Origin: Methylotenera sp.
GTDB lineage: Bacteria > Pseudomonadota > Gammaproteobacteria > Burkholderiales > Methylophilaceae
Assembly (NCBI GenBank): GCA_048058875.1
Contig: JBLLNR010000005.1
Location: forward strand, 48,615-112,614
DNA length: 64,000 nt
Direction: 5' to 3'
Each line of letters starts with the position of its first letter. Within the stretch, counting starts at the first letter, position 1. The notes under the pieces are model-generated. The model worked only from the letters and a program-made list of their open reading frames with translations. It was not told the DNA's origin and ran no database searches. Position numbers and translations under genes: made by a program. This document shows positions 2,113 through 12,927 of the stretch, in pieces.

Positions 2113-3336
2113 ATGATTAACTCCCTATCCTTTGCTCGTCACGGTGACAAACAGAACTCAGCATTTTTTGAAGAATATCTACAGCTCATTTTAGAAGACA
2201 GAGACCAACTTGGTCTCACCGAAATGGTACATGAAATTGACGCACTGATGATTACAGTTGACCCTGACAACTCCATCGAATATATCGCTGAGCTCTGTCT
2301 GATGACACCCTATCATTATCTGGTCACATTGGAGAGCGAGTCCCACTGGACACATATTCTACGCATCGATTTAAACTCACCTGATTTAATCGTGCGTGAA
2401 GTAAAAGATCCAAATTTCAGAGGTATCTTCCGCTCCTTAAATGAGATTTATCCTGTTGGTTCGCGTAAACCTAATAGCCGCTATATGGGGGAAATCATTC
2501 GTGTCACAAATAAACACGAAGTAGAAAAAATCCAGACTTCGCGCGAATTTAGATTTTTTAATCAAAATGATATTCGCAAACTAGAACTACCGGGTAATTT
2601 AGCCATCAGTAAACCATCACCCTACACGCACAATATCGTGGGTTATCTGGAGCGTAGTGTGGCTGATATTAGGGTGTATGCCCTTGGGATTAGCACCATA
2701 AGAGATGACGTGCAATCAGCCTATGAGAAAGCCAAAGAGCTACAAGAAAACTTAGGCATTCATGATTTAATTTTACCAGTTGATCACCTTGCCACACGCA
2801 TCTATAGCCAGAATAGAGAAGTTGCAATTCTTGAATATTTATCATTGTCCAGTTACCATTTTTGGGGTGCATATAATATTAAAGATCAAAACTCTTCAAC
2901 CAATGTCACTAAAAGCGTGCATGCAGTTCCTGAGTCAAAAAGTCCTGCTAAAGTCTTTACGGCTAACAACACGCCCTACTTCGTGAATCATTTAGAGAAG
3001 CTGCCATCGCCGACTGAAACATTCGTGCGTAATTATGGCCCTCGCCTGCACCACATGGCATTGGCAGTAAAAGATGGTGAACGAAATGGCATTGAGAATA
3101 TTGATTATGTAGTTAACTCCATTGCAGAACAAGGAAAAGGCTTCTTGTTAGATGTAATTGGATCAAAAGAACAAGGTCTAAAACAGATATTCTCCAATGC
3201 CTCTGAGCACTCCTCACTCATTATTGAATATGTTCAGCGCTATGGCGATTTTAATGGATTCTTTACCAAAGAAAACGTGGCAGCATTGACAGAAGCGGCA
3301 GGCGTTGAAGAGGGAGTCAGAGCTTTGGATGTTTAA
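2113..3336 (+). CDS. VOC-superfamily protein with a 4-hydroxyphenylpyruvate-dioxygenase-like C-terminal half (putative Fe(II) dioxygenase)
   Basis: Blocks VDHLATRI, GPRLHHMALAV and GLKQIFS..SLIIEYVQRYGDFNGFFTKENVAAL resemble the HPPD 2-His-1-Glu arrangement and the HPPD C-terminal LLQIFT..FFEIIQR..GFG.GNF motif. The N-terminal ~200 aa were not recognised. Confidence 0.5.
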   Translation: MINSLSFARHGDKQNSAFFEEYLQLILEDRDQLGLTEMVHEIDALMITVDPDNSIEYIAELCLMTPYHYLVTLESESHWTHILRIDLNSPDLIVREVKDPNFRGIFRSLNEIYPVGSRKPNSRYMGEIIRVTNKHEVEKIQTSREFRFFNQNDIRKLELPGNLAISKPSPYTHNIVGYLERSVADIRVYALGISTIRDDVQSAYEKAKELQENLGIHDLILPVDHLATRIYSQNREVAILEYLSLSSYHFWGAYNIKDQNSSTNVTKSVHAVPESKSPAKVFTANNTPYFVNHLEKLPSPTETFVRNYGPRLHHMALAVKDGERNGIENIDYVVNSIAEQGKGFLLDVIGSKEQGLKQIFSNASEHSSLIIEYVQRYGDFNGFFTKENVAALTEAAGVEEGVRALDV

Positions 3337-3409
3337 TACAACCATCGCAAAATACTGGCATAGTATTCGCTAGTTATTCCACAGAACATTGTGTAAGATA
3401 AAAACTAGA

Positions 3410-4858
3410 ATGAAAATATCCTCTATAGAATACGCCTCAATTCAAGCTTACGATGAGTTGCTTGACAAAAACTTGGTGCCACGAGATGTTGCGAAGCCCA
3501 TGCTAGATTACTTGGCATCACTAGATGAAGCCGAGCTAGCTGCTAGAAAACAAGCTGTTGATGCAGCCATTTTAGCCATGGGGATTACCTTCACAATCTA
3601 CTCCGACGCAGGCAATATAGATAGAGCGTGGCCTTTTGACATTGTGCCGAGGATCATCAGTAGTAAGGAATGGGACACGGTCCAAGAAGGTCTCAAACAG
3701 CGGCTAACAGCACTCAATATGTTTATTAACGACCTCTATAACAATCAAAAGATTGTAAAAGATGGTGTTTTCCCGATTGAAGTATTAAATGGCTCTAAGA
3801 ATTTCAGGGAACAGTGTATAGGCATTACGCCTCGTTTTGGTGCATGGGCGCATATATGCGGCACTGATTTGGTTAGAGATGATGATGGTACGATGTACGT
3901 GCTGGAAGATAACTTAAGAATTCCTTCTGGTGTATCTTATATGTTAGAGAACCGCCAGATTATGAAACGGGTTTTCCCCGAACTATTTCAAATCTCAAAT
4001 ATCAAACCGGTCGATAACTACCCCGCTATGCTATATAAAACGTTAGCAGCGTTATCACCACGTAAAAACAAATCCCCAGTCATCGTTGTGTTAACACCAG
4101 GCATTTATAACTCTGCATATTTTGAACACAGCTATTTAGCTGAGCAAATGAGTGCCAATCTAGCTGAAGGTTCTGATTTAGTAGTCGATGACAAAGACAT
4201 TGTCTATCTCAAAACAATCACTGGACTAGAACGAGTCGATGTCGTCTACCGCCGCGTTGATGATGACTTTATAGACCCAGAAGTATTTAACCCTGAATCA
4301 GTACTGGGCGTAAAAGGCCTGATGCGCGCATGGCGCAAAGGCAATGTAGCAATTGCTAATGCACCTGGTGCAGGCGTAGCTGATGATAAAGTAGTGTATA
4401 CCTTTGTCCCACAAATCATTAAATATTATCTTGACCAAGACCCAATCATCCAAAACGTACCAAGCTACTTGTGTATGTATGACGACCAACGTGATTACGT
4501 CCTGAAAAATTTAGATAAATTAGTCGTAAAGCCTGCCAATGAATCTGGCGGGTATGGCATGTTAATAGGCCCTCGAGCAAGCAAAAAAGAACGTGATCAA
4601 TTTGCTGACTTAATCCGTGCAAATCCACGTAATTACATGGCGCAACCTACGCTTAACATTTCTACTGGCCCAACCATTATCAATGGCCAACTGGCACCGC
4701 GCCATCTGGACTTACGCCCGTTTGTACTTCAATCAAATCAGCTTCATGTCACAATGGGTGGGTTAACACGCGTTGCGATGCGTCAAGGCTCATTGGTAGT
4801 CAACTCATCTCAAGGTGGTGGTAGTAAAGACACGTGGATTGTAGAAGGAGACAGCTAG
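3410..4858 (+). CDS. Circularly permuted ATP-grasp type 2 protein (DUF404/DUF407 amidoligase family)
   Basis: Family-typical blocks VLEDNLRIPSGVSYMLENR and VVKPANESGGYGMLIGP; ~480 aa; immediately followed by an alpha-E gene. The ORF track starts at a TTG at 3389; the ATG at 3410 (MKISSIEY) is the more likely start. Confidence 0.85.
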   Translation: MKISSIEYASIQAYDELLDKNLVPRDVAKPMLDYLASLDEAELAARKQAVDAAILAMGITFTIYSDAGNIDRAWPFDIVPRIISSKEWDTVQEGLKQRLTALNMFINDLYNNQKIVKDGVFPIEVLNGSKNFREQCIGITPRFGAWAHICGTDLVRDDDGTMYVLEDNLRIPSGVSYMLENRQIMKRVFPELFQISNIKPVDNYPAMLYKTLAALSPRKNKSPVIVVLTPGIYNSAYFEHSYLAEQMSANLAEGSDLVVDDKDIVYLKTITGLERVDVVYRRVDDDFIDPEVFNPESVLGVKGLMRAWRKGNVAIANAPGAGVADDKVVYTFVPQIIKYYLDQDPIIQNVPSYLCMYDDQRDYVLKNLDKLVVKPANESGGYGMLIGPRASKKERDQFADLIRANPRNYMAQPTLNISTGPTIINGQLAPRHLDLRPFVLQSNQLHVTMGGLTRVAMRQGSLVVNSSQGGGSKDTWIVEGDS

Positions 4859-4859
4859 T

Positions 4860-5795
4860 ATGATGCTTGCGCGCGATGCTGAAAACTTCTATTGGATGGC
4901 ACGATATCTTGAGCGAGCAGAAAACACTGCACGCTTGATTATTAAAATTACTGACACCTTATTAGACATGCCAACCGATGCCTCTATTGGCTGGAAAACT
5001 TTGTTACAGATTGTTGGCGTCGACCATCTCTACCATGAACATTACAAAATAGCCAAAGAAAATGACATTATTCATTTTTTGATTGCGGATGAGCGCAATC
5101 CTAGCTCAATTTTAGCCTGTATTAAATATGCTCGTGAAAACACCCGGACGTTAAGAGAGCTCTTACCAGAAGAACTCTGGGAGCGTGTAAACAGTTTGTA
5201 TTTATATATTTTAAGCAATATTGCTGAGACCTCGCAAAAAAGGCGTAAAAAATATGTTTTCCTACAAGAGGTTATCTACCGCAGACAGGCGATTATTGGT
5301 CTGATTTTTGGTGCTATGGAGCGTAATTTGCCCTATCATTTCATGAAGATGGGAAGAAATCTAGAGCGTGCTGACATGACAACAAGAATTATGGATGTCA
5401 ACTATGCAATTTCGCTACCAGAGAATCACCCGCTATACGAAGTAGCCAAAGAGACGCTTTGGGCAAGTATTTTGAAGTCTCTGTCAGGTTACCAAACCTA
5501 CAGGCGGCTGAAACACTTTCATGTGACCATGCCAGACGTCGTTGATTTTCTATTCAATGAAAAAAACTTTCCTCGCAGTATCTTACATTGTATCGGTGAA
5601 CTTGAAAATTGCTTGGTTGATATGCCTAATAATAAAGAAGTGCTTAAAACAGTCAGATTAGCGCAAAAATCTCTAGCGAAGAAAGATGAACAAAACATGA
5701 GCGAAGAGAAACTGCATGACCATATTGACCTTTCTCAGCAATTTATTGGTGATATCAATAATGCCATAACAAAACAGTACTTTAATAACAAATAG
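4860..5795 (+). CDS. Alpha-E domain protein (DUF403)
   Basis: The N-terminal LARDAENFYWMARYLERAENTARL is the hallmark alpha-E motif. It sits 2 bp after the ATP-grasp stop, which is the usual pairing. Confidence 0.85.
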   Translation: MMLARDAENFYWMARYLERAENTARLIIKITDTLLDMPTDASIGWKTLLQIVGVDHLYHEHYKIAKENDIIHFLIADERNPSSILACIKYARENTRTLRELLPEELWERVNSLYLYILSNIAETSQKRRKKYVFLQEVIYRRQAIIGLIFGAMERNLPYHFMKMGRNLERADMTTRIMDVNYAISLPENHPLYEVAKETLWASILKSLSGYQTYRRLKHFHVTMPDVVDFLFNEKNFPRSILHCIGELENCLVDMPNNKEVLKTVRLAQKSLAKKDEQNMSEEKLHDHIDLSQQFIGDINNAITKQYFNNK

Positions 5796-6520
5796 TGTCT
5801 TATAGCTTATCAATTCATACTGATGAAGGACTCGTCTTATGTGCCAGCACTGTCCTTGTACAAAGTACGGAAGGGACGCAACCAAGTACCAATATGCAAC
5901 GTTTCATCTGGCCAGGAGATCGTTTTGTCACAATCTTATCCTCTGGTAACCAGAAAACAATTGACAGTGTTTTAAATAAAATTCGTCAAGATTTAAATAC
6001 GCAATTACCTACAACACTGTTAACGCCTAACACCATGGATGAAATAGCAGACTATATTGCAGCTATCAGTGTCCAACAACAAAAAAATTTAATCCAGCAG
6101 TTCGGTGAAGATGAGGCGTACGAAGCTAATTTTATTGTGGCTGGTCAAATCGCTAACAAACAAATGGCAACATTGCTCATTTATGCTCAAGGTAATTTTA
6201 TTCATGAGCCCAACTCGTCACCATTTTTGCAAATTGGCGAAATCAAATATGGGAAACCGATTTTAGACCGCGTTATTAAACGAGATACGAATCTAAATAC
6301 CGCAGCGCATGCCGCATTTGTCTCTGTTGACTCTAACATCAAAAGTAATCCCAGTAACCTAATAAAAACTGAAATAATGATTTATAAAAAAGATAGTCTT
6401 GAAATAAGTGCTTACTTAGTCCTTGATAATAATGATGCTTTCTTTAAGAATACTTCTGCATCATGGAATCAAGGTGTTATTGGTGCGTTAGAGACCTTGC
6501 CAAAATTTTATTGGGAGTAA
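5795..6520 (+). CDS. Anbu-like proteasome-family paralogue with degenerate catalytic residues
   Basis: About 40% identical by eye to the next gene along its whole length (EGLVLC, ILSSGN, FIVAGQI, GKPILDR, LPKF.WE). It has Ser2/Ser18/Asn33 where the neighbour has Thr2/Asp18/Lys33. The GTG start overlaps the alpha-E stop. Confidence 0.65.
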   Translation: MSYSLSIHTDEGLVLCASTVLVQSTEGTQPSTNMQRFIWPGDRFVTILSSGNQKTIDSVLNKIRQDLNTQLPTTLLTPNTMDEIADYIAAISVQQQKNLIQQFGEDEAYEANFIVAGQIANKQMATLLIYAQGNFIHEPNSSPFLQIGEIKYGKPILDRVIKRDTNLNTAAHAAFVSVDSNIKSNPSNLIKTEIMIYKKDSLEISAYLVLDNNDAFFKNTSASWNQGVIGALETLPKFYWE

Positions 6521-6668
6521 CTAAAACGTAAACTAAAGTATATTTATTTCGTTAATTTACTTTTACAGTTTCACATTAATGAACTACTATTGCTGTTAAA
6601 CAAAAATAATTATAATTGCAAAACTTAAGAAGTAACGCAGAAGCTGCGTTCCCGGGGACTACTTAACA

Positions 6669-7439
6669 ATGACCTATTGTCTAGCCATAAATACAAATGA
6701 AGGTTTGGTGCTCTGCTCAGACTCAAGGACTAATGCAGGCTTTGATAATGTATCTACCTACAACAAAATGCATACATTTTCATGGCTAAACAATCGTTTT
6801 ATCACCATTTTGTCATCTGGTAACTTGGCTACCACACAACAAGTGCTAAAAAAAATACAAACTGATATTGATAAAGGTTTTTTGCCTAATTTACTCAGTG
6901 TTAATTCCATGCATGAGGCCATTGATTACATTGCCTCAGTGAGCACAACTATACAAAACGTACATGTTGTTCGTGATGCCAGTAATACCAGCTTTCAAGC
7001 AACGTTTATAGTCGCTGGTCAAATAGGCTCTGATAAACCAGAAACTTGTTTAATTTATCCTCAAGGTAATTACATTCATGAGTCAGACGAACATCCCTAC
7101 ATACAAATAGGCGAAACTAAATATGGCAAACCGATTCTAGATCGGATTATCAGTCGAGAAACATCGCTTAATAGGGCTGCTCGTTGTGCACTTGTGTCAA
7201 TGAACTCCACTATCCGAAGTAATCTTACAGTTGGCCCGCCAATTGATTTAATGCTCTATGAAAAAGATAGCCTAAGCGAGGGTAGAAAACTGCATTTAAC
7301 GGAAGATGATACTTTTGCAAAAGAGTTGGCAGAAAAATGGAATAATGGCTTAATTAACGCATTGATGAGCTTGCCTAAATTCGAATGGGAACAACAAGAT
7401 CAGCTTAATTCACAAAACATTCAACAAAACGTTAACTAA
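6669..7439 (+). CDS. Anbu-type bacterial proteasome homologue (Ntn hydrolase, ancestral beta-subunit family)
   Basis: The N-terminus MTYCLAINTNEGLVLCSDSRTNAG matches the Anbu signature: Thr directly after Met, DSRTNAG, and Lys33. It is genetically linked to cpATP-grasp, alpha-E and transglutaminase genes, as described for Anbu operons. Confidence 0.78.
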   Translation: MTYCLAINTNEGLVLCSDSRTNAGFDNVSTYNKMHTFSWLNNRFITILSSGNLATTQQVLKKIQTDIDKGFLPNLLSVNSMHEAIDYIASVSTTIQNVHVVRDASNTSFQATFIVAGQIGSDKPETCLIYPQGNYIHESDEHPYIQIGETKYGKPILDRIISRETSLNRAARCALVSMNSTIRSNLTVGPPIDLMLYEKDSLSEGRKLHLTEDDTFAKELAEKWNNGLINALMSLPKFEWEQQDQLNSQNIQQNVN

Positions 7440-7445
7440 ATTACT

Positions 7446-10400
7446 CTAATCTGCCAGCCATCTTAAATCTAAGGTGAGTGGAAATCTGGGGTTGCGTGTC
7501 TCTTGCTTGACTTCTAATTTACCAGGTTTATGACCATGCCCCCAGAAACGGGCAAAACGACGCGCTTCCGCTTCATTGGCATTCACAGGGAACGTGTCAT
7601 AGTTACGTCCACCTGGATGCGATACATGGTAAGTGCATCCCCCTATCGCCCTGCTACTCCAGGTATCAACCAAGTCAAACACCAAAGGTGCTTGTACTTT
7701 AATAGTAGGGTGCAAAGCCGACCATGGACTCCAAGCACGAAAACGAACACCTGCAACATACTCACCCACATTACCTGTCGGCTGCAATGGTAATGCCCGC
7801 CCGTTACAAGTAACAATATGACGCCCATCAGTGAGTCCTCTCACTCTTAGCTGCATCCTTTCCACTGATGAATCCACATAGCGCGCAGTACCACCACCAC
7901 TCATTTCTTCACCTAGTACGTTCCAAGGCTCAATTGCCTGACGTAATTCTAATTCTACACCTTGATAAGCAACGGTACCGAACCGGGGGAAGCGAAACTC
8001 AACAAAAGGATCAAACCAATGTTGCTCAAATCCATAGCCAAAATCTTGTAAATCAGTCACAACGTCTGCGATATCCTGAGCTACATAGTGCGGCAACATC
8101 CAGCGGTCATGCAGTTCGGTACCCCAATGAATCAATTTACCTTGATATGGCTCTTTCCAGAAACGAGCTACCAAAGCACGCAATAACAGGCTTTGTAGTA
8201 AACTCATACGCGCATGTGGCGGCATTTCAAATGCTCTAAATTCAACTAACCCCAATCTACCCGTTGGACCATCGGGAGAATAAAGTTTATCAATTGAAAA
8301 CTCAGCACGATGCGTATTACCCGTTAAATCAACTAGTAAGTTGCGTAACAAACGGTCTACCAACCATGGCCTTTTGCTCTCCTCAGTTTTAGGTAAGTTT
8401 TTTTCCATTTGCTGAAAAGCGATAGCTAGTTCATATAAATTATCATCACGTGCTTCATCAACTCGTGGTGCCTGACTAGTTGGTCCGATAAAAGTACCAG
8501 AAAATAAATAAGACAATGCTGGATGATTTTGCCAATAGGTAATTAAACTTTTTAATACATCTGGCCTTCTCAGCATTGGACTATCTTCAGCAGTAGCGCC
8601 GCCTAATGTTGCATGATTTCCACCCCCTGTACCAGTGTGACGCCCATCTAACATAAACTTCTCAGTTCCTAGTCGGCATAAACGGGCTTCTTCATACAAT
8701 GTCGTGACATTGTTAACCAGCTCTGACCACGAGTCAGCAGGATGGATGTTTACCTCAATGACACCTGGATCAGGTGTCACACTCAACATCTTAATCCGTG
8801 CGTCTCGCGGTGGCGTATAACCCTCTAGCCATAGCTTCAGTTTAAGGCTTGCTGCCGTATCCTCAATGACCCGTATCAGCATAAGATAATCATCTAACCG
8901 TTCCATGGGTGGCATAAAGACATGGAGCCGACCGTTTCTGACTTGTACACATAACGCCGTATGAATAACATCGCGGGGCAACGGTTTCTTTTGTTTACTT
9001 TTGACTTTTACTTTGATTGTAGAACTATCATTGCTGAGTTCCTCCTGCTGTTCAAAAGGATCAATAGCAAAATCGGGCTCCATCTCATCTGGCAACATCC
9101 ACGGCAGTGATTTCAATGGTAAACGCAGGCCCATTGGTGAATCCCCGCTTAGTAAGTATAAATGTTCACGCTTGAGCGGCCATTTACTAGTCAACCATTC
9201 AACATCATTTTTTTTGTCATTTGCCTTTTTGCGTTGACTGCTCTTAGCTGGCTTTATCGGCATTACATAACCGACAACTTCTTGTAGACCACGCTCTAGT
9301 AACCGAGCTAGACGACGTCTTTCTTCACTATCCTTCAAATCAACTTTTAAAGGATCTATGTTTTCTGGGAATTGCTCTTCTAAGTGTGCTAGTGCAACAA
9401 CATCTTCATAGGCAGGTATTAAGCAGGCTTTGGGGAAATCAAGCTTTTCAACTAAAGTATTTGCAAATAAGAGAGCATGCTCTGATGTGTAATTGTCTTT
9501 TACTTTTTCATCTGAAAACAGACTTTCATCACGCCAAATTGGTTTGCCGTCTATGCGCCAAAACATACTAATTGCCCAGCGTGGTAAAGGTTCACCAGGA
9601 TACCACTTACCTTGACCATAATGTAGCAGGCTACCCTTAGTAAAGTGCTGCTTTAATTTAATCGCTAACTCACCAGCAAGCTCACGCTTCTTTTTGCCAT
9701 GTGCCTCAGTATTCCATTCTGCACCTTCCATGTCATCAATTGACACAAAAGTAGGCTCTCCACCTTGTGTCAACCTGACATCTTGTTTTTTCAAATCACT
9801 ATCGACCTTTTTACCCAGTCGATCAATTTTCAACCAATCATCTTCTGAATATGGTTTCGTCACTCTTGGGTCTTCATGAATTCTGGTTATGGTCATTTCA
9901 TGATTAAATGTCACCTCTGCAATATCTGATAAACCCGTCACAGGTGCAGCGGATGAAGGTAGCGCAGTACAGGCTAACGGAATATGTCCCTCTCCTGCTA
10001 ATAAACCCGAAGTTGGGTCTAATCCAATCCAGCCAGCACCTGGAATGAAGACCTCTGCCCAAGCATGCAAATCCGTAAAATCTACCTTAGTGCCACTGGG
10101 GCCATCTAGGGCTTCTATATCTGCGGTTAATTGAATCAAATAACCAGAAACAAAGCGTGCAGCTAAACCTAAATGACGACATATTTGCACCAGCAGCCAA
10201 GCAGTATCGCGACATGAACCCGTTTTATTAGTAAGGGTTTCTTCAGGTGTTTGAATACCTGGCTCCATTCGCACCAAATAACCAATTTCCTTTTGCAGGG
10301 CTTGATTAACAGCAACTAAAAAATTAGCCGTACTCAAGTTTTGCGTAACAAGCTCTTTTTCAACTTTGGCAACCCAATCTTTTAATAATGGTTTCATTGG

Positions 10401-10763
10401 GTCTGGCTTCAAATATGCACTCAGCTCAAACTCCTGCTGATCGGTATATTTAAAAGGGAAATGCTCAGCATATTTCTCAACAAAAAAATCAAACGGATTG
10501 ATAACGGTCATATCTGCTACTAAATCGACCGTAAATTCTAATTCTTGCACCTTTTCGGGGAATACATACCGCGCTATATAGTTCCCATAAGGGTCTTGTT
10601 GCCAATTAATAAAATGCTTTTTGGGAGTAACAGTTAACGAGTAAGATAATATAGGCGTACGTGCGTGTGATGCTGGTCTCAGGCGAACCTCATGTGGGGA
10701 CAAGCTTACCAAACGATCAAACTTGTAGCTGGTTTTATGATGCAATGCAACGCGAATAGCCAT
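7446..10763 (-). CDS. Large transglutaminase-family protein (N-terminal Bact_transglu_N + transglutaminase core + DUF2126-like C-terminal region)
   Basis: Cys-His-Asp core: GSCRDTAWLL, DLHAWAEVF, GLDPTSG. The 1105-aa architecture is typical of DUF2126 proteins. Convergent with the Anbu gene; only 6 bp separate the two stop codons. Confidence 0.85.
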   Translation of the reverse strand: MAIRVALHHKTSYKFDRLVSLSPHEVRLRPASHARTPILSYSLTVTPKKHFINWQQDPYGNYIARYVFPEKVQELEFTVDLVADMTVINPFDFFVEKYAEHFPFKYTDQQEFELSAYLKPDPMKPLLKDWVAKVEKELVTQNLSTANFLVAVNQALQKEIGYLVRMEPGIQTPEETLTNKTGSCRDTAWLLVQICRHLGLAARFVSGYLIQLTADIEALDGPSGTKVDFTDLHAWAEVFIPGAGWIGLDPTSGLLAGEGHIPLACTALPSSAAPVTGLSDIAEVTFNHEMTITRIHEDPRVTKPYSEDDWLKIDRLGKKVDSDLKKQDVRLTQGGEPTFVSIDDMEGAEWNTEAHGKKKRELAGELAIKLKQHFTKGSLLHYGQGKWYPGEPLPRWAISMFWRIDGKPIWRDESLFSDEKVKDNYTSEHALLFANTLVEKLDFPKACLIPAYEDVVALAHLEEQFPENIDPLKVDLKDSEERRRLARLLERGLQEVVGYVMPIKPAKSSQRKKANDKKNDVEWLTSKWPLKREHLYLLSGDSPMGLRLPLKSLPWMLPDEMEPDFAIDPFEQQEELSNDSSTIKVKVKSKQKKPLPRDVIHTALCVQVRNGRLHVFMPPMERLDDYLMLIRVIEDTAASLKLKLWLEGYTPPRDARIKMLSVTPDPGVIEVNIHPADSWSELVNNVTTLYEEARLCRLGTEKFMLDGRHTGTGGGNHATLGGATAEDSPMLRRPDVLKSLITYWQNHPALSYLFSGTFIGPTSQAPRVDEARDDNLYELAIAFQQMEKNLPKTEESKRPWLVDRLLRNLLVDLTGNTHRAEFSIDKLYSPDGPTGRLGLVEFRAFEMPPHARMSLLQSLLLRALVARFWKEPYQGKLIHWGTELHDRWMLPHYVAQDIADVVTDLQDFGYGFEQHWFDPFVEFRFPRFGTVAYQGVELELRQAIEPWNVLGEEMSGGGTARYVDSSVERMQLRVRGLTDGRHIVTCNGRALPLQPTGNVGEYVAGVRFRAWSPWSALHPTIKVQAPLVFDLVDTWSSRAIGGCTYHVSHPGGRNYDTFPVNANEAEARRFARFWGHGHKPGKLEVKQETRNPRFPLTLDLRWLAD

Positions 10764-11107: not shown

Positions 11108-11148
11108 TTTTAAACTATGAGCGAATAAGATGTATGAAGCAAGTTAGA

Positions 11149-11225
11149 TGGTACCCCCGACGCGATTCGAACGCATGACCTTCCCCTTAGGAGGGGGACG
11201 CTCTATCCATCTGAGCTACGAGGGC
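11149..11225 (-). tRNA. tRNA-Arg (anticodon CCU)
   Basis: The reverse complement, GCCCTCGTAGCTCAGATGGATAGAGCG-TCCCC-CTCCTAA-GGGGA-..GGTTCGAATC..GGGGGTACCA, folds as a cloverleaf. The anticodon loop is CUCCUAA, and CCA is encoded. Confidence 0.9.
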
Positions 11226-11262
11226 AATAAATGCTGTGGAATTTTGTGTATTGTAAATTCAT

Positions 11263-12282
11263 TCAATACAACCAAGTACCATCGCCTAGCAAATCGGCAT
11301 GACAGTCTTTATTGGGAACATTGCAGTTTTCCCACCAAGTATCAAGCACTTGCTGTGACCACCCAAATACATAATCCATATGTAATGAGTAACCTCCTCG
11401 ACCGCCTTTATAATTATCGCTGGCAATGCGAAGGTTTTCTGTGCCGTTTACTTTATAGTGAATTATACCCGATATATGTGGCAGTGCCTTTGGGTGTGTT
11501 GCAGGGCATCGACCATTTGAGTCATATGCCATATGCGCTTTATGACTGGGACTATCCAGATTTTCACCATCCCAACAGCTAGGGAAGTGCACGACTGCAG
11601 TTAAATCTCCTACACAATCAGGAATGTAATTTTTTCTTAATTTATATGCGACACCACCTAATTTACCGGCGTTGCATTGCCAATTGATCTTATCCCAGTT
11701 CTGTGGGTTATCCTCTGTTGCGGTATGATCGCCTGCAATCATCATTAATCCATTTGGTGGTTTAACGTCGCCCCCTTTGTAATAGAATAAAGCCCAATCA
11801 GGTTTGAGCGGAGTACCATCTTTGGTGTCAATCAAGCTCGGCAACCAATAAGATGAACGATTAGCAATACCACCCTGACAGGTGCTATTACCAGTCTTTC
11901 TTATACTGTCAGCTGTAGCGTTGAAATACGCACCTGTATTCCCAAAAAAGGTGTGGTGATGAGCAGCACCCTCCTGATTTGGGTAAACAATAAAATCATC
12001 ATTCGCCATATGGCTAGCAGCACAGTGAATGCGAAAATCTCCGCCAGAAAAACTAAAGGGATTTGGTGTAAAAACTTCTCTAGTAGGGTCTGGCACAGGT
12101 TGCACTCTTAATTCAGCATACCCTTCTGCAGGTTTCATGTTCTTAGTTGTATCCACTGCAGGCATATAGTCTTCAGTTTGCGTTGGGGCAACTGTATTTT
12201 GTGATGAGCCAACAGAGCTACACGCAGAAATGGTAACGCCAGCTATGGCAGATACTATTTTAAGTACACGGTAATTTTCCAT
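11263..12282 (-). CDS. Lipoprotein with a DUF1996-like domain
   Basis: Signal peptide plus lipobox (AGVTISAC). FRIHCAASHMANDDFIVYPNQEGAAHHHTFFGN matches the DUF1996 FR..C...DPIV.PG...H.H.F.G pattern. Confidence 0.5.
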   Translation of the reverse strand: MENYRVLKIVSAIAGVTISACSSVGSSQNTVAPTQTEDYMPAVDTTKNMKPAEGYAELRVQPVPDPTREVFTPNPFSFSGGDFRIHCAASHMANDDFIVYPNQEGAAHHHTFFGNTGAYFNATADSIRKTGNSTCQGGIANRSSYWLPSLIDTKDGTPLKPDWALFYYKGGDVKPPNGLMMIAGDHTATEDNPQNWDKINWQCNAGKLGGVAYKLRKNYIPDCVGDLTAVVHFPSCWDGENLDSPSHKAHMAYDSNGRCPATHPKALPHISGIIHYKVNGTENLRIASDNYKGGRGGYSLHMDYVFGWSQQVLDTWWENCNVPNKDCHADLLGDGTWLY

Positions 12283-12447: not shown

Positions 12448-12927
12448 CTAGCTAGTGGATAAATGTTGAATGATAGACTCTAAAACAGCATCATTAAACT
12501 GATATGGGTTAAATGAACTGAGCTTATGTTGTTGCAATATCGCCTGAATGTCAGAACCAACACCAGCATACTTCATATACCATTTGGCAAAAGATTTTTG
12601 ATGGATACGTTTATTACTTAATATCTTGATGTCAGTATGTCTAGTATCTTTTTTGAGTACATCAATCAACTCAGTGATTTCGTCAATACCGCCTTGTAGG
12701 CATTGTAGGCATTGTAGGCATTGTAGGCATTGTAGGCATTGTAGGCATTGTAGGCATTGTAGAAAATAACCGTTACCAAAGCACAAAACACCTACAAGGC
12801 GTTTATTTCTATTATTGGCTCTGGCCTTTTCCAAAATATCAGCGACTTCTGGCTCTATTTGATAAGGGTTCGCTGATAACGGAAAAGTTGCACGACTCGT
12901 ATAAACAATTTGGGTGTAATAATCCAT
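12448..12927 (-). CDS. Stand-alone BLUF (blue-light sensor using FAD) protein with an internal (CLQ)n insertion
   Basis: BLUF landmarks are present: the Tyr in IVYTSRA, GVLCFGNGYFLQ-CLQG (equivalent to FFQWLEG of AppA), DTRHTDIKIL and FAKWYM. It lies 4 bp downstream of the GGDEF-EAL gene on the same strand. Confidence 0.85.
   Translation of the reverse strand: MDYYTQIVYTSRATFPLSANPYQIEPEVADILEKARANNRNKRLVGVLCFGNGYFLQCLQCLQCLQCLQCLQCLQCLQGGIDEITELIDVLKKDTRHTDIKILSNKRIHQKSFAKWYMKYAGVGSDIQAILQQHKLSSFNPYQFNDAVLESIIQHLSTS
12694..12762 (-). repeat. Perfect 9-bp tandem repeat (TTGTAGGCA on +; TGCCTACAA = Cys-Leu-Gln on the coding strand), 7 full copies plus a 6-bp partial
   Basis: Counted directly: units start at 12694, 12703, 12712, 12721, 12730, 12739 and 12748, with a partial unit at 12757-12762. 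It is in frame and gives FLQ(CLQ)7GG. Confidence 0.95.

Follow-up and report, generated by a model that had tools for sequence, protein, structure and literature searches.

The DNA considered here, a window of 64,000 nt from Methylotenera sp. (GenBank assembly GCA_048058875.1, contig JBLLNR010000005.1, positions 48,615 to 112,614 of the forward strand; window numbering is used throughout), carries two neighbouring genes for Anbu, a proposed ancestral form of proteasome subunits. Both lie on the + strand, with paralogue A (5795-6520, GTG start) encoding 241 aa and paralogue B (6669-7439, ATG start) encoding 256 aa, and the coordinates of these open reading frames (ORFs) are exactly those given in a sequence-only reading of the same DNA. 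Directly upstream and on the same strand are genes for a CP ATP-grasp protein (3410-4858; Pfam CP_ATPgrasp_2, E = 1.3e-163) and an Alpha-E domain protein (4860-5795; Pfam Alpha-E, E = 5.5e-80), and downstream follows, on the - strand and convergent with B, a gene for an 1105-aa fusion of a transglutaminase-like part with DUF2126 (7446-10763; Pfam Bact_transglu_N, Transglut_core and DUF2126). By Pfam, the classical Anbu neighbourhood of CP ATP-grasp, Alpha-E and transglutaminase is present in the window, with the fusion gene, whose position is conserved in all related loci, as its transglutaminase component. The ATP-grasp ORF had been listed from a TTG at 3389; its 482-aa homologues fit the ATG at 3410 instead, and the gene is found at the equivalent position in the related loci L001, L003, L005, L086, L087, L088, L091 and L092.

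In BLASTP, A and B share 109 of 241 residues (45% identity, E = 1e-74) and align gapless across all 241; the sequence-only reading had noted the gapless alignment for the first ~60 residues and had put the identity slightly too low, at roughly 40%. Among solved structures, A and B each match Anbu (5loy, 5lox, 5nyj, 5nyf and 5nyw; for 5loy, E = 2.5e-39 with A and 1.5e-66 with B). As the alignment of A to the solved Anbu proteins is gapless over the N-terminal ~85 residues, its Ser1, Ser17 and Asn32 come to lie opposite Thr1, Asp17 and Lys32, and its STVLVQS opposite DSRTNAG. The assignment of Ser/Ser/Asn to A and of Thr1/Asp17/Lys32 to B, first read from the letters alone, is thereby confirmed on solved structures, and a register shift that would restore the catalytic residues of A was seen neither in this alignment nor in the fold match described below. 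B starts with M-T-Y-C and keeps Thr1, Asp17, Lys32 and DSRTNAG. A starts with M-S-Y-S and lacks the Thr1 described for Anbu-1, and Asp17 and Lys32(33) of the catalytic centre and the DSRTNAG loop, likewise features of Anbu-1, are present in B and missing from A; a propeptide is absent in both. The S1 pocket, formed in Pa-Anbu by T20/F30/T48/L52/S55 (PMC5666114), is equivalent in B (T20/Y30/S48/L52/T55) and reads L20/S30/S48/Q52/I55 in A, with four of the five positions changed. Pfam assigns B to 'Proteasome', and A is recognised by no Pfam or NCBIfam model; database entries with 100% identity are named 'MAG: peptidase [Methylotenera sp.]' (MAG, metagenome-assembled genome). B is also longer by a 15-residue C-terminal tail that is absent from A.

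For the fold, A was modelled with AlphaFold2 on the alignment of its clade, with B modelled as a control. The model of A reached a predicted local distance difference test score (pLDDT) of 85.4 and a predicted template modelling score (pTM) of 0.85, and its best matches in the PDB were all Anbu (5nyw, 5loy, 5nyj and 5lox; template modelling score ~0.8, E ~2e-19). The glycine at position 50, described as the oxyanion hole (PMC5666114), is invariant in the A clade. A dip in pLDDT at loop 21-30 of A was considered as a sign of a disordered, dead loop and rejected, as the B control dips at 21-29 too. B is an ordinary member of Anbu-1, and A is an Anbu by descent and fold which nevertheless lacks the catalytic residues that characterise the family.

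A separate observation concerns the VSxDS motif. Its Asp is present in the crystallised 5loy, 5lox and 5nyw, in A itself (VSVDS, 6329-6343) and in 100% of the degenerate A clade, and is replaced by Asn in B (VSMNST, 7200-7215) and in 76/76 active betaproteobacterial relatives; this Asn may matter for the chemistry at the active site of B.

Divergence and selection in the A clade

Among the best 120 relatives of A, each representing one 90%-identity cluster, 47 lack the catalytic residues, with identities to A down to ~50%, and a pattern of the Ser/Ser/Asn type that recurs so often is far beyond chance. At position 17 most of these proteins carry Ser or Ala, and the others Cys, Thr, Val or Tyr; at position 32 they have Asn, Ser, His, Gln, Tyr, Cys or Arg, and the segment between the two positions has lost or gained residues (about -11 to +6). 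The fully degenerate sequences group as one clade in neighbour-joining (NJ) trees, with a bootstrap of 100% for all columns and of 90% when catalytic and relaxed columns were removed. This clade and a group of intact 'A-type' proteins join in a larger one (bootstrap 95-99%), whose sister group consists of the B-type proteins encoded by the same genomes. Its taxonomy follows from few source names (Methylotenera sp., Methylophilaceae bacterium and Methylophilus sp.), all of them MAGs. When 1.84 billion representatives were searched with a profile, 812 Anbu-like proteins were found at E <= 1e-10, and no fully degenerate lineage other than the A clade was found among the best 150 of these, which were inspected; the clade itself appeared as a single 50% cluster (P0039) plus P0067. 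Degenerate Anbu genes were likewise absent from a background set of 80 Anbu loci of other species, taken from the matches listed by a scan with patterns common to all Anbu and containing no Methylophilaceae, and two copies were present there only in L006 and L007.

Substitution rates were calculated by NG86 from the three closest loci. The ratio of non-synonymous to synonymous substitution (dN/dS) was 0.08-0.13 for A (dN 0.085-0.136), about 0.02 for B (dN 0.018-0.025) and 0.01-0.02 for Alpha-E and ATP-grasp. Within A, the loop 17-33 stands at 0.42-0.57, which is nearly neutral, and the rest of the protein at 0.06-0.11. When the entropy of each alignment column was compared between the degenerate clade and 76 active relatives, residues 17-33 gave 2.49 versus 0.30 bits, most other segments were alike (0.6-1.5 versus 0.6-1.4 bits), and residues 161-200 were intermediate (1.11 versus 0.66 bits). 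L52, A53, T55 and Q56 are among the positions with at least 90% conservation in active Anbu that A has released or altered, and two of them, L52 and residue 55, are S1-pocket positions in Pa-Anbu (PMC5666114); constraint is released in the A clade at R101, D102, S138, R171 and in the 185-190 loop as well. Conversely, I55, L98, N111, S141, V177 and D178 are fixed in this clade only, and 44 columns are invariant across the 37 clade members for which invariance was counted. Therefore, from the lost catalytic centre, the purifying selection elsewhere in the protein and the retained fold, A is a pseudo-protease maintained by selection.

A redundant duplicate that has no function and is decaying into a pseudogene would also evolve faster than B, show weak translation signals and escape the Pfam and NCBIfam models, as A does. 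Such decay is contradicted by the selection data, by the 44 invariant columns and by the ORFs themselves, which are full-length in 47 clusters down to ~50% identity with neither frameshifts nor stops, and we consider it barely credible; a decay unique to this strain, raised in the sequence-only reading as one of the findings that would speak against its interpretation, is equally at odds with the 47 clusters and the low dN/dS. Homologues of A with only 208-209 aa were considered as N-terminal truncations and rejected, since an in-frame GTG start restores the N-terminus (checked for L091 and L092). In the databases, A homologues are called from an internal Met (MQRF or MHRF) in P0032 and P0037, and also in P0033, P0036, P0041 and P0066; the apparent truncations are gene-caller errors which arise because the true start is GTG.

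Position 1 is Ser in 77% of the degenerate clade and otherwise Thr, Pro or Val, and a hydrolase which has kept its activity, with Ser1 as the nucleophile in a rearranged active site of new specificity, would be one way to read this preference. Serine at position 1 is also found in other lineages in proteins that keep Asp17 and Lys32 (L035, P0261, P0270, P0343 and P0363, and P0255, in which the TNAG loop is altered in addition); from the otherwise intact proteins, a serine nucleophile seems to be tolerated in the Anbu family. The invariance of the oxyanion-hole Gly50 and of D178 in A would suit an active enzyme as well. Nevertheless, position 1 is Pro or Val in P0021, P0024, P0038 and P0040, no acid is conserved at position 17 and no base at position 32, the loop around them is hypervariable in length and sequence and evolves almost neutrally, and the S1 pocket is changed at four of its five positions, which together make this explanation very unlikely. 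Ser, Thr, Pro and Val are all residues that permit removal of the initiator Met.

Expression signals and pairing of the two genes

The GTG start of A overlaps the TAG stop of Alpha-E by one base (TAGTG). Across ten loci the start of A is GTG in six and overlaps or abuts the Alpha-E stop, and a Shine-Dalgarno-like motif was found upstream of A in none of the ten; B starts with ATG in nine of ten, with a GGGGA-type Shine-Dalgarno-like motif 8-14 nt upstream, and its copy in L090 starts with GTG. From the GTG start and the lack of a Shine-Dalgarno motif, A is probably translationally coupled to Alpha-E. The gap between A and B comprises 148 bp (6521-6668) with 71% A+T, compared to 57% across the whole window, and contains a predicted sigma-70-like promoter element, TTTACA-17 nt-TACTAT (6562-6590, +), which was located by a promoter scan and an alignment of seven loci and would place the transcription start near 6597-6600. 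The key positions of both hexamers are invariant in all seven despite the diverged intergenic sequence around them, and the scan gave no terminator-like site between A and B. We infer from these signals that A is translated at a low level from the operon transcript, coupled to Alpha-E, and that B is made from read-through and from its own predicted promoter; the earlier suggestion that the gap permits independent expression has thus gained a conserved promoter-like element. The putative 5' leader of B also holds a perfect 7-bp inverted repeat (AACGCAG-AAG-CTGCGTT, 6636-6652, +), located 17 nt before the start codon, which is imperfect in L086 and L087 and absent in more distant loci. At the other end of the gene, B and the transglutaminase-DUF2126 gene end 6 nt apart (7439-7446), and no terminator-like site was found there in the scan.

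An intact B with Thr1, Asp17 and Lys32 lies downstream of the degenerate A in 9/9 scoreable loci, namely the window and L001, L003, L086, L087, L089, L090, L091 and L092. L002 and L004, second contigs on which the A proteins of L001 and L003 recur, were not counted separately, and L088 was left outside the count, as its sequence stops 290 nt past A. The phylogeny proposed in the sequence-only reading has therefore led to a conserved clade for the degenerate copy, with an intact copy beside it wherever this could be scored. Source contigs of matching length in A and B clusters suggest about ten further co-occurrences. The common layout consists of a 407-aa ORF, ATP-grasp, Alpha-E, A, the gap and B, followed by the convergent transglutaminase-DUF2126 gene. 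The 407-aa ORF lies directly upstream of the ATP-grasp gene (2113-3336, +) and has a 407-408-aa counterpart at the equivalent position in L001, L003, L005, L086, L088, L091 and L092; it had no match in Pfam, NCBIfam or PDB searches and may be an extra member of the Anbu operon.

As to the history of the pair, neither tandem copy has lost its catalytic residues in the related locus L005, which is arranged in the same way, and so the duplication preceded the catalytic loss; it arose in the Methylophilaceae before the lineage of the window diverged. A occupies the ancestral position directly after Alpha-E. In L090 the A-type protein (894-1619) is partly decayed, with T1, D17 and R19 kept, TNAG changed to LAPT and K32 to Asn, and as it clusters with intact A-type proteins and not with the degenerate clade, a second, independent decay is suggested. 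Two intact Anbu genes with one gene between them are present in L006 (Sideroxydans), and the NJ tree favours separate duplications in the Methylophilaceae and the Gallionellaceae (L006), at a node that has no bootstrap value. L007, a Nitrosomonadales MAG, shows a different arrangement, in which a lone B-like Anbu gene (2039-2812) lies immediately upstream of a divergent and complete ATP-grasp/Alpha-E/Anbu operon (3047-6235), i.e. two Anbu systems side by side.

Elsewhere in the window, a tRNA-Arg gene with anticodon CCT (11149-11225, -) overlaps a 144-aa ORF (11148-11582, +), which is probably spurious. A perfect 9-bp tandem repeat of 7.7 copies with 100% matches (12694-12762) encodes an (LQC)n tract within the ORF 12448-12927 (-) and may be a length-variable coding repeat. 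The product of this ORF has 159 aa, and its positional counterpart in L001, beside a GGDEF-EAL gene, is a 143-aa BLUF-domain protein.

Proposed assembly of A with B

The basic dimer of Pa-Anbu has an antiparallel coiled coil made by the C-terminal helix, whose truncation abolishes assembly (PMC5666114). The residues W224, G227, L235, P236, F238, W240 and E241 of this helix are invariant in A and common to B; in the models, A has helices at 215-224 and 228-233, and B an additional tail helix at 239-253. The C-terminal dimerisation helix is thus retained in A by sequence and model, with dimerisation itself a prediction. The most likely mechanism, to which we give about an even chance, would be co-assembly with B, with A as a non-catalytic subunit. 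Indirect support for it comes from the adjacency in all nine loci, the co-divergence of A and B, whose pairwise distances across the loci correlate with r = 0.94, and the common dimerisation helix. A would join B by the coiled-coil dimer interface at the C-terminus or by lateral interfaces and give a mixed split-ring, in which A could provide structure or a binding surface and B the active sites. With A supplied at a low level together with ATP-grasp and Alpha-E, and B from read-through and its own promoter, the composition of the open Anbu assembly upon induction of the operon, and perhaps also its activity or length, might be determined by the amount of A.

Several points weigh against such a mixed particle. 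The protein distance of A grows ~2.5 times faster than that of B, and the constant adjacency of both genes is equally expected from vertical inheritance of a tandem pair. Residue 53, which lies at an intersubunit contact according to the crosslinking mutants A53C/N132C of Pa-Anbu and A53C/N133C of Cons-Anbu (PMC5666114), is variable in A, so that A may be altered on one of its assembly faces. Moreover, from its own conserved promoter and its better translation signals, B may work as a homo-oligomer without A, either in addition or exclusively.

Some of these points would equally fit the main alternative, a sub-functionalisation in which A is a stand-alone pseudo-enzyme, either as its own homo-oligomer or as a binder of ATP-grasp and Alpha-E or of their product, and acts as scaffold, receptor or substrate holder, with B as a separately regulated homo-oligomeric protease. 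The ancestral position of A, abutting or overlapping the Alpha-E stop, agrees with this, as do the conserved promoter and Shine-Dalgarno motif of B, the residues conserved in the A clade only, the changed contact residue 53, and the Anbu genes of Sideroxydans (L006), whose separation by another gene indicates that two copies can uncouple. However, A and B have nearly identical dimerisation helices, and cross-dimerisation would need to be actively avoided; in addition, every degenerate A in the nine loci had an intact B as its neighbour. Dead paralogues of homo-oligomeric proteases, like ClpR beside ClpP or the inactive beta subunits of the proteasome, usually occur within mixed complexes, which by analogy would also speak for co-assembly. 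A stand-alone role for A thus seems possible rather than probable.

Returning to co-assembly, a capping or composition-setting role is possible for A, as it would be made in small amounts from the operon message and may have a remodelled lateral face at residues 52-56. More tentatively, and at somewhat less than even confidence, we propose that Methylotenera-type bacteria have independently repeated the step proposed to have created the proteasome, with A as a non-catalytic subunit that would co-assemble with B, possibly as a cap or as a composition-setting subunit, and would couple assembly to the induction of ATP-grasp and Alpha-E.

Comparison with known systems

The function of the Anbu system as a whole is still unknown (PMC5666114, PMC6376114, PMC8665760). 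A could serve as a natural non-catalytic variant for finding Anbu binding partners, although its reach is limited by the small size of the clade (one 50%-identity cluster) and by its origin in an uncultured Methylophilaceae lineage, known here from sequence alone. Of wider interest is the graded natural series, from the single Anbu of most bacteria over two intact copies (L005 and Sideroxydans L006) and a partly decayed one (L090) to the conserved non-catalytic copy of the window, with which it becomes possible to test, in a living system, whether duplication followed by inactivation can lead to a hetero-oligomeric, proteasome-like particle. Valas and Bourne noted that species with a duplicated Anbu could resemble a precursor of the 20S proteasome (PMC3235984).

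The closest known relatives are the Anbu-1 proteins of Pseudomonas aeruginosa (PA1733), Yersinia bercovieri and Hyphomicrobium (5lox, 5nyw and 5nyj), which are like A and B in sequence, fold, missing propeptide, C-terminal helix and gene neighbourhood. All catalytic and S1-pocket features described for Anbu-1 are present in B; the difference lies in the presence of two tandem paralogues, of which A is without Thr1, Asp17, Lys32 and the S1 pocket. In the literature searched Anbu is described only as a homo-oligomer, as the sequence-only reading had stated, and as the product of a single gene, with a homo-dodecameric open split-ring as the assembly of Anbu-1, and no report of an inactive Anbu paralogue was found there. 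Genomes with two Anbu paralogues have been described, as Ch1/Ch2 of Cytophaga hutchinsonii and as Anbu-1 with Anbu-2, for example in Azospirillum brasilense, and according to the excerpts of these papers, Anbu-1 and Anbu-2 are told apart by the substrate pocket and not by catalytic loss (PMC3235984, PMC5666114, PMC6376114). Compared by description only, the Cytophaga and Azospirillum pairs are not reported as inactive in these excerpts, which also do not mention a tandem within one operon. A is thus a variant new to the Anbu literature searched and confined to one Methylophilaceae lineage.

Of the more distant systems, the inactive subunits of the 20S proteasome (alpha, and beta3, beta4, beta6 and beta7 of eukaryotes) are, like A, Ntn-threonine (N-terminal nucleophile) paralogues without catalytic residues which keep the fold and occur alongside active paralogues. 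The event in A is, however, a recent one, limited to a single bacterial family and separate from the alpha/beta split, and co-assembly of A with B is a prediction. An alpha-type N-terminal H0 extension is also absent in A, which starts at the same residue as B and begins with a strand at 3-8 in the model. The earlier analogy to a proteasome-like pair holds in so far as one copy is catalytically intact and the other without catalytic residues, and is less apt for the comparison with alpha. ClpR/ClpP mixed rings contain a dead paralogue that is kept by selection and encoded beside the active one. Such rings, and also those of ClpP1/ClpP2 in Streptomyces, are like A/B in showing the dead-paralogue pattern in a self-compartmentalising protease, and as their fold and family are unrelated they offer an analogy only. 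As A has no alpha-type extension, inactive beta subunits or dead paralogues of the ClpR type would be the better models for its relation to B.

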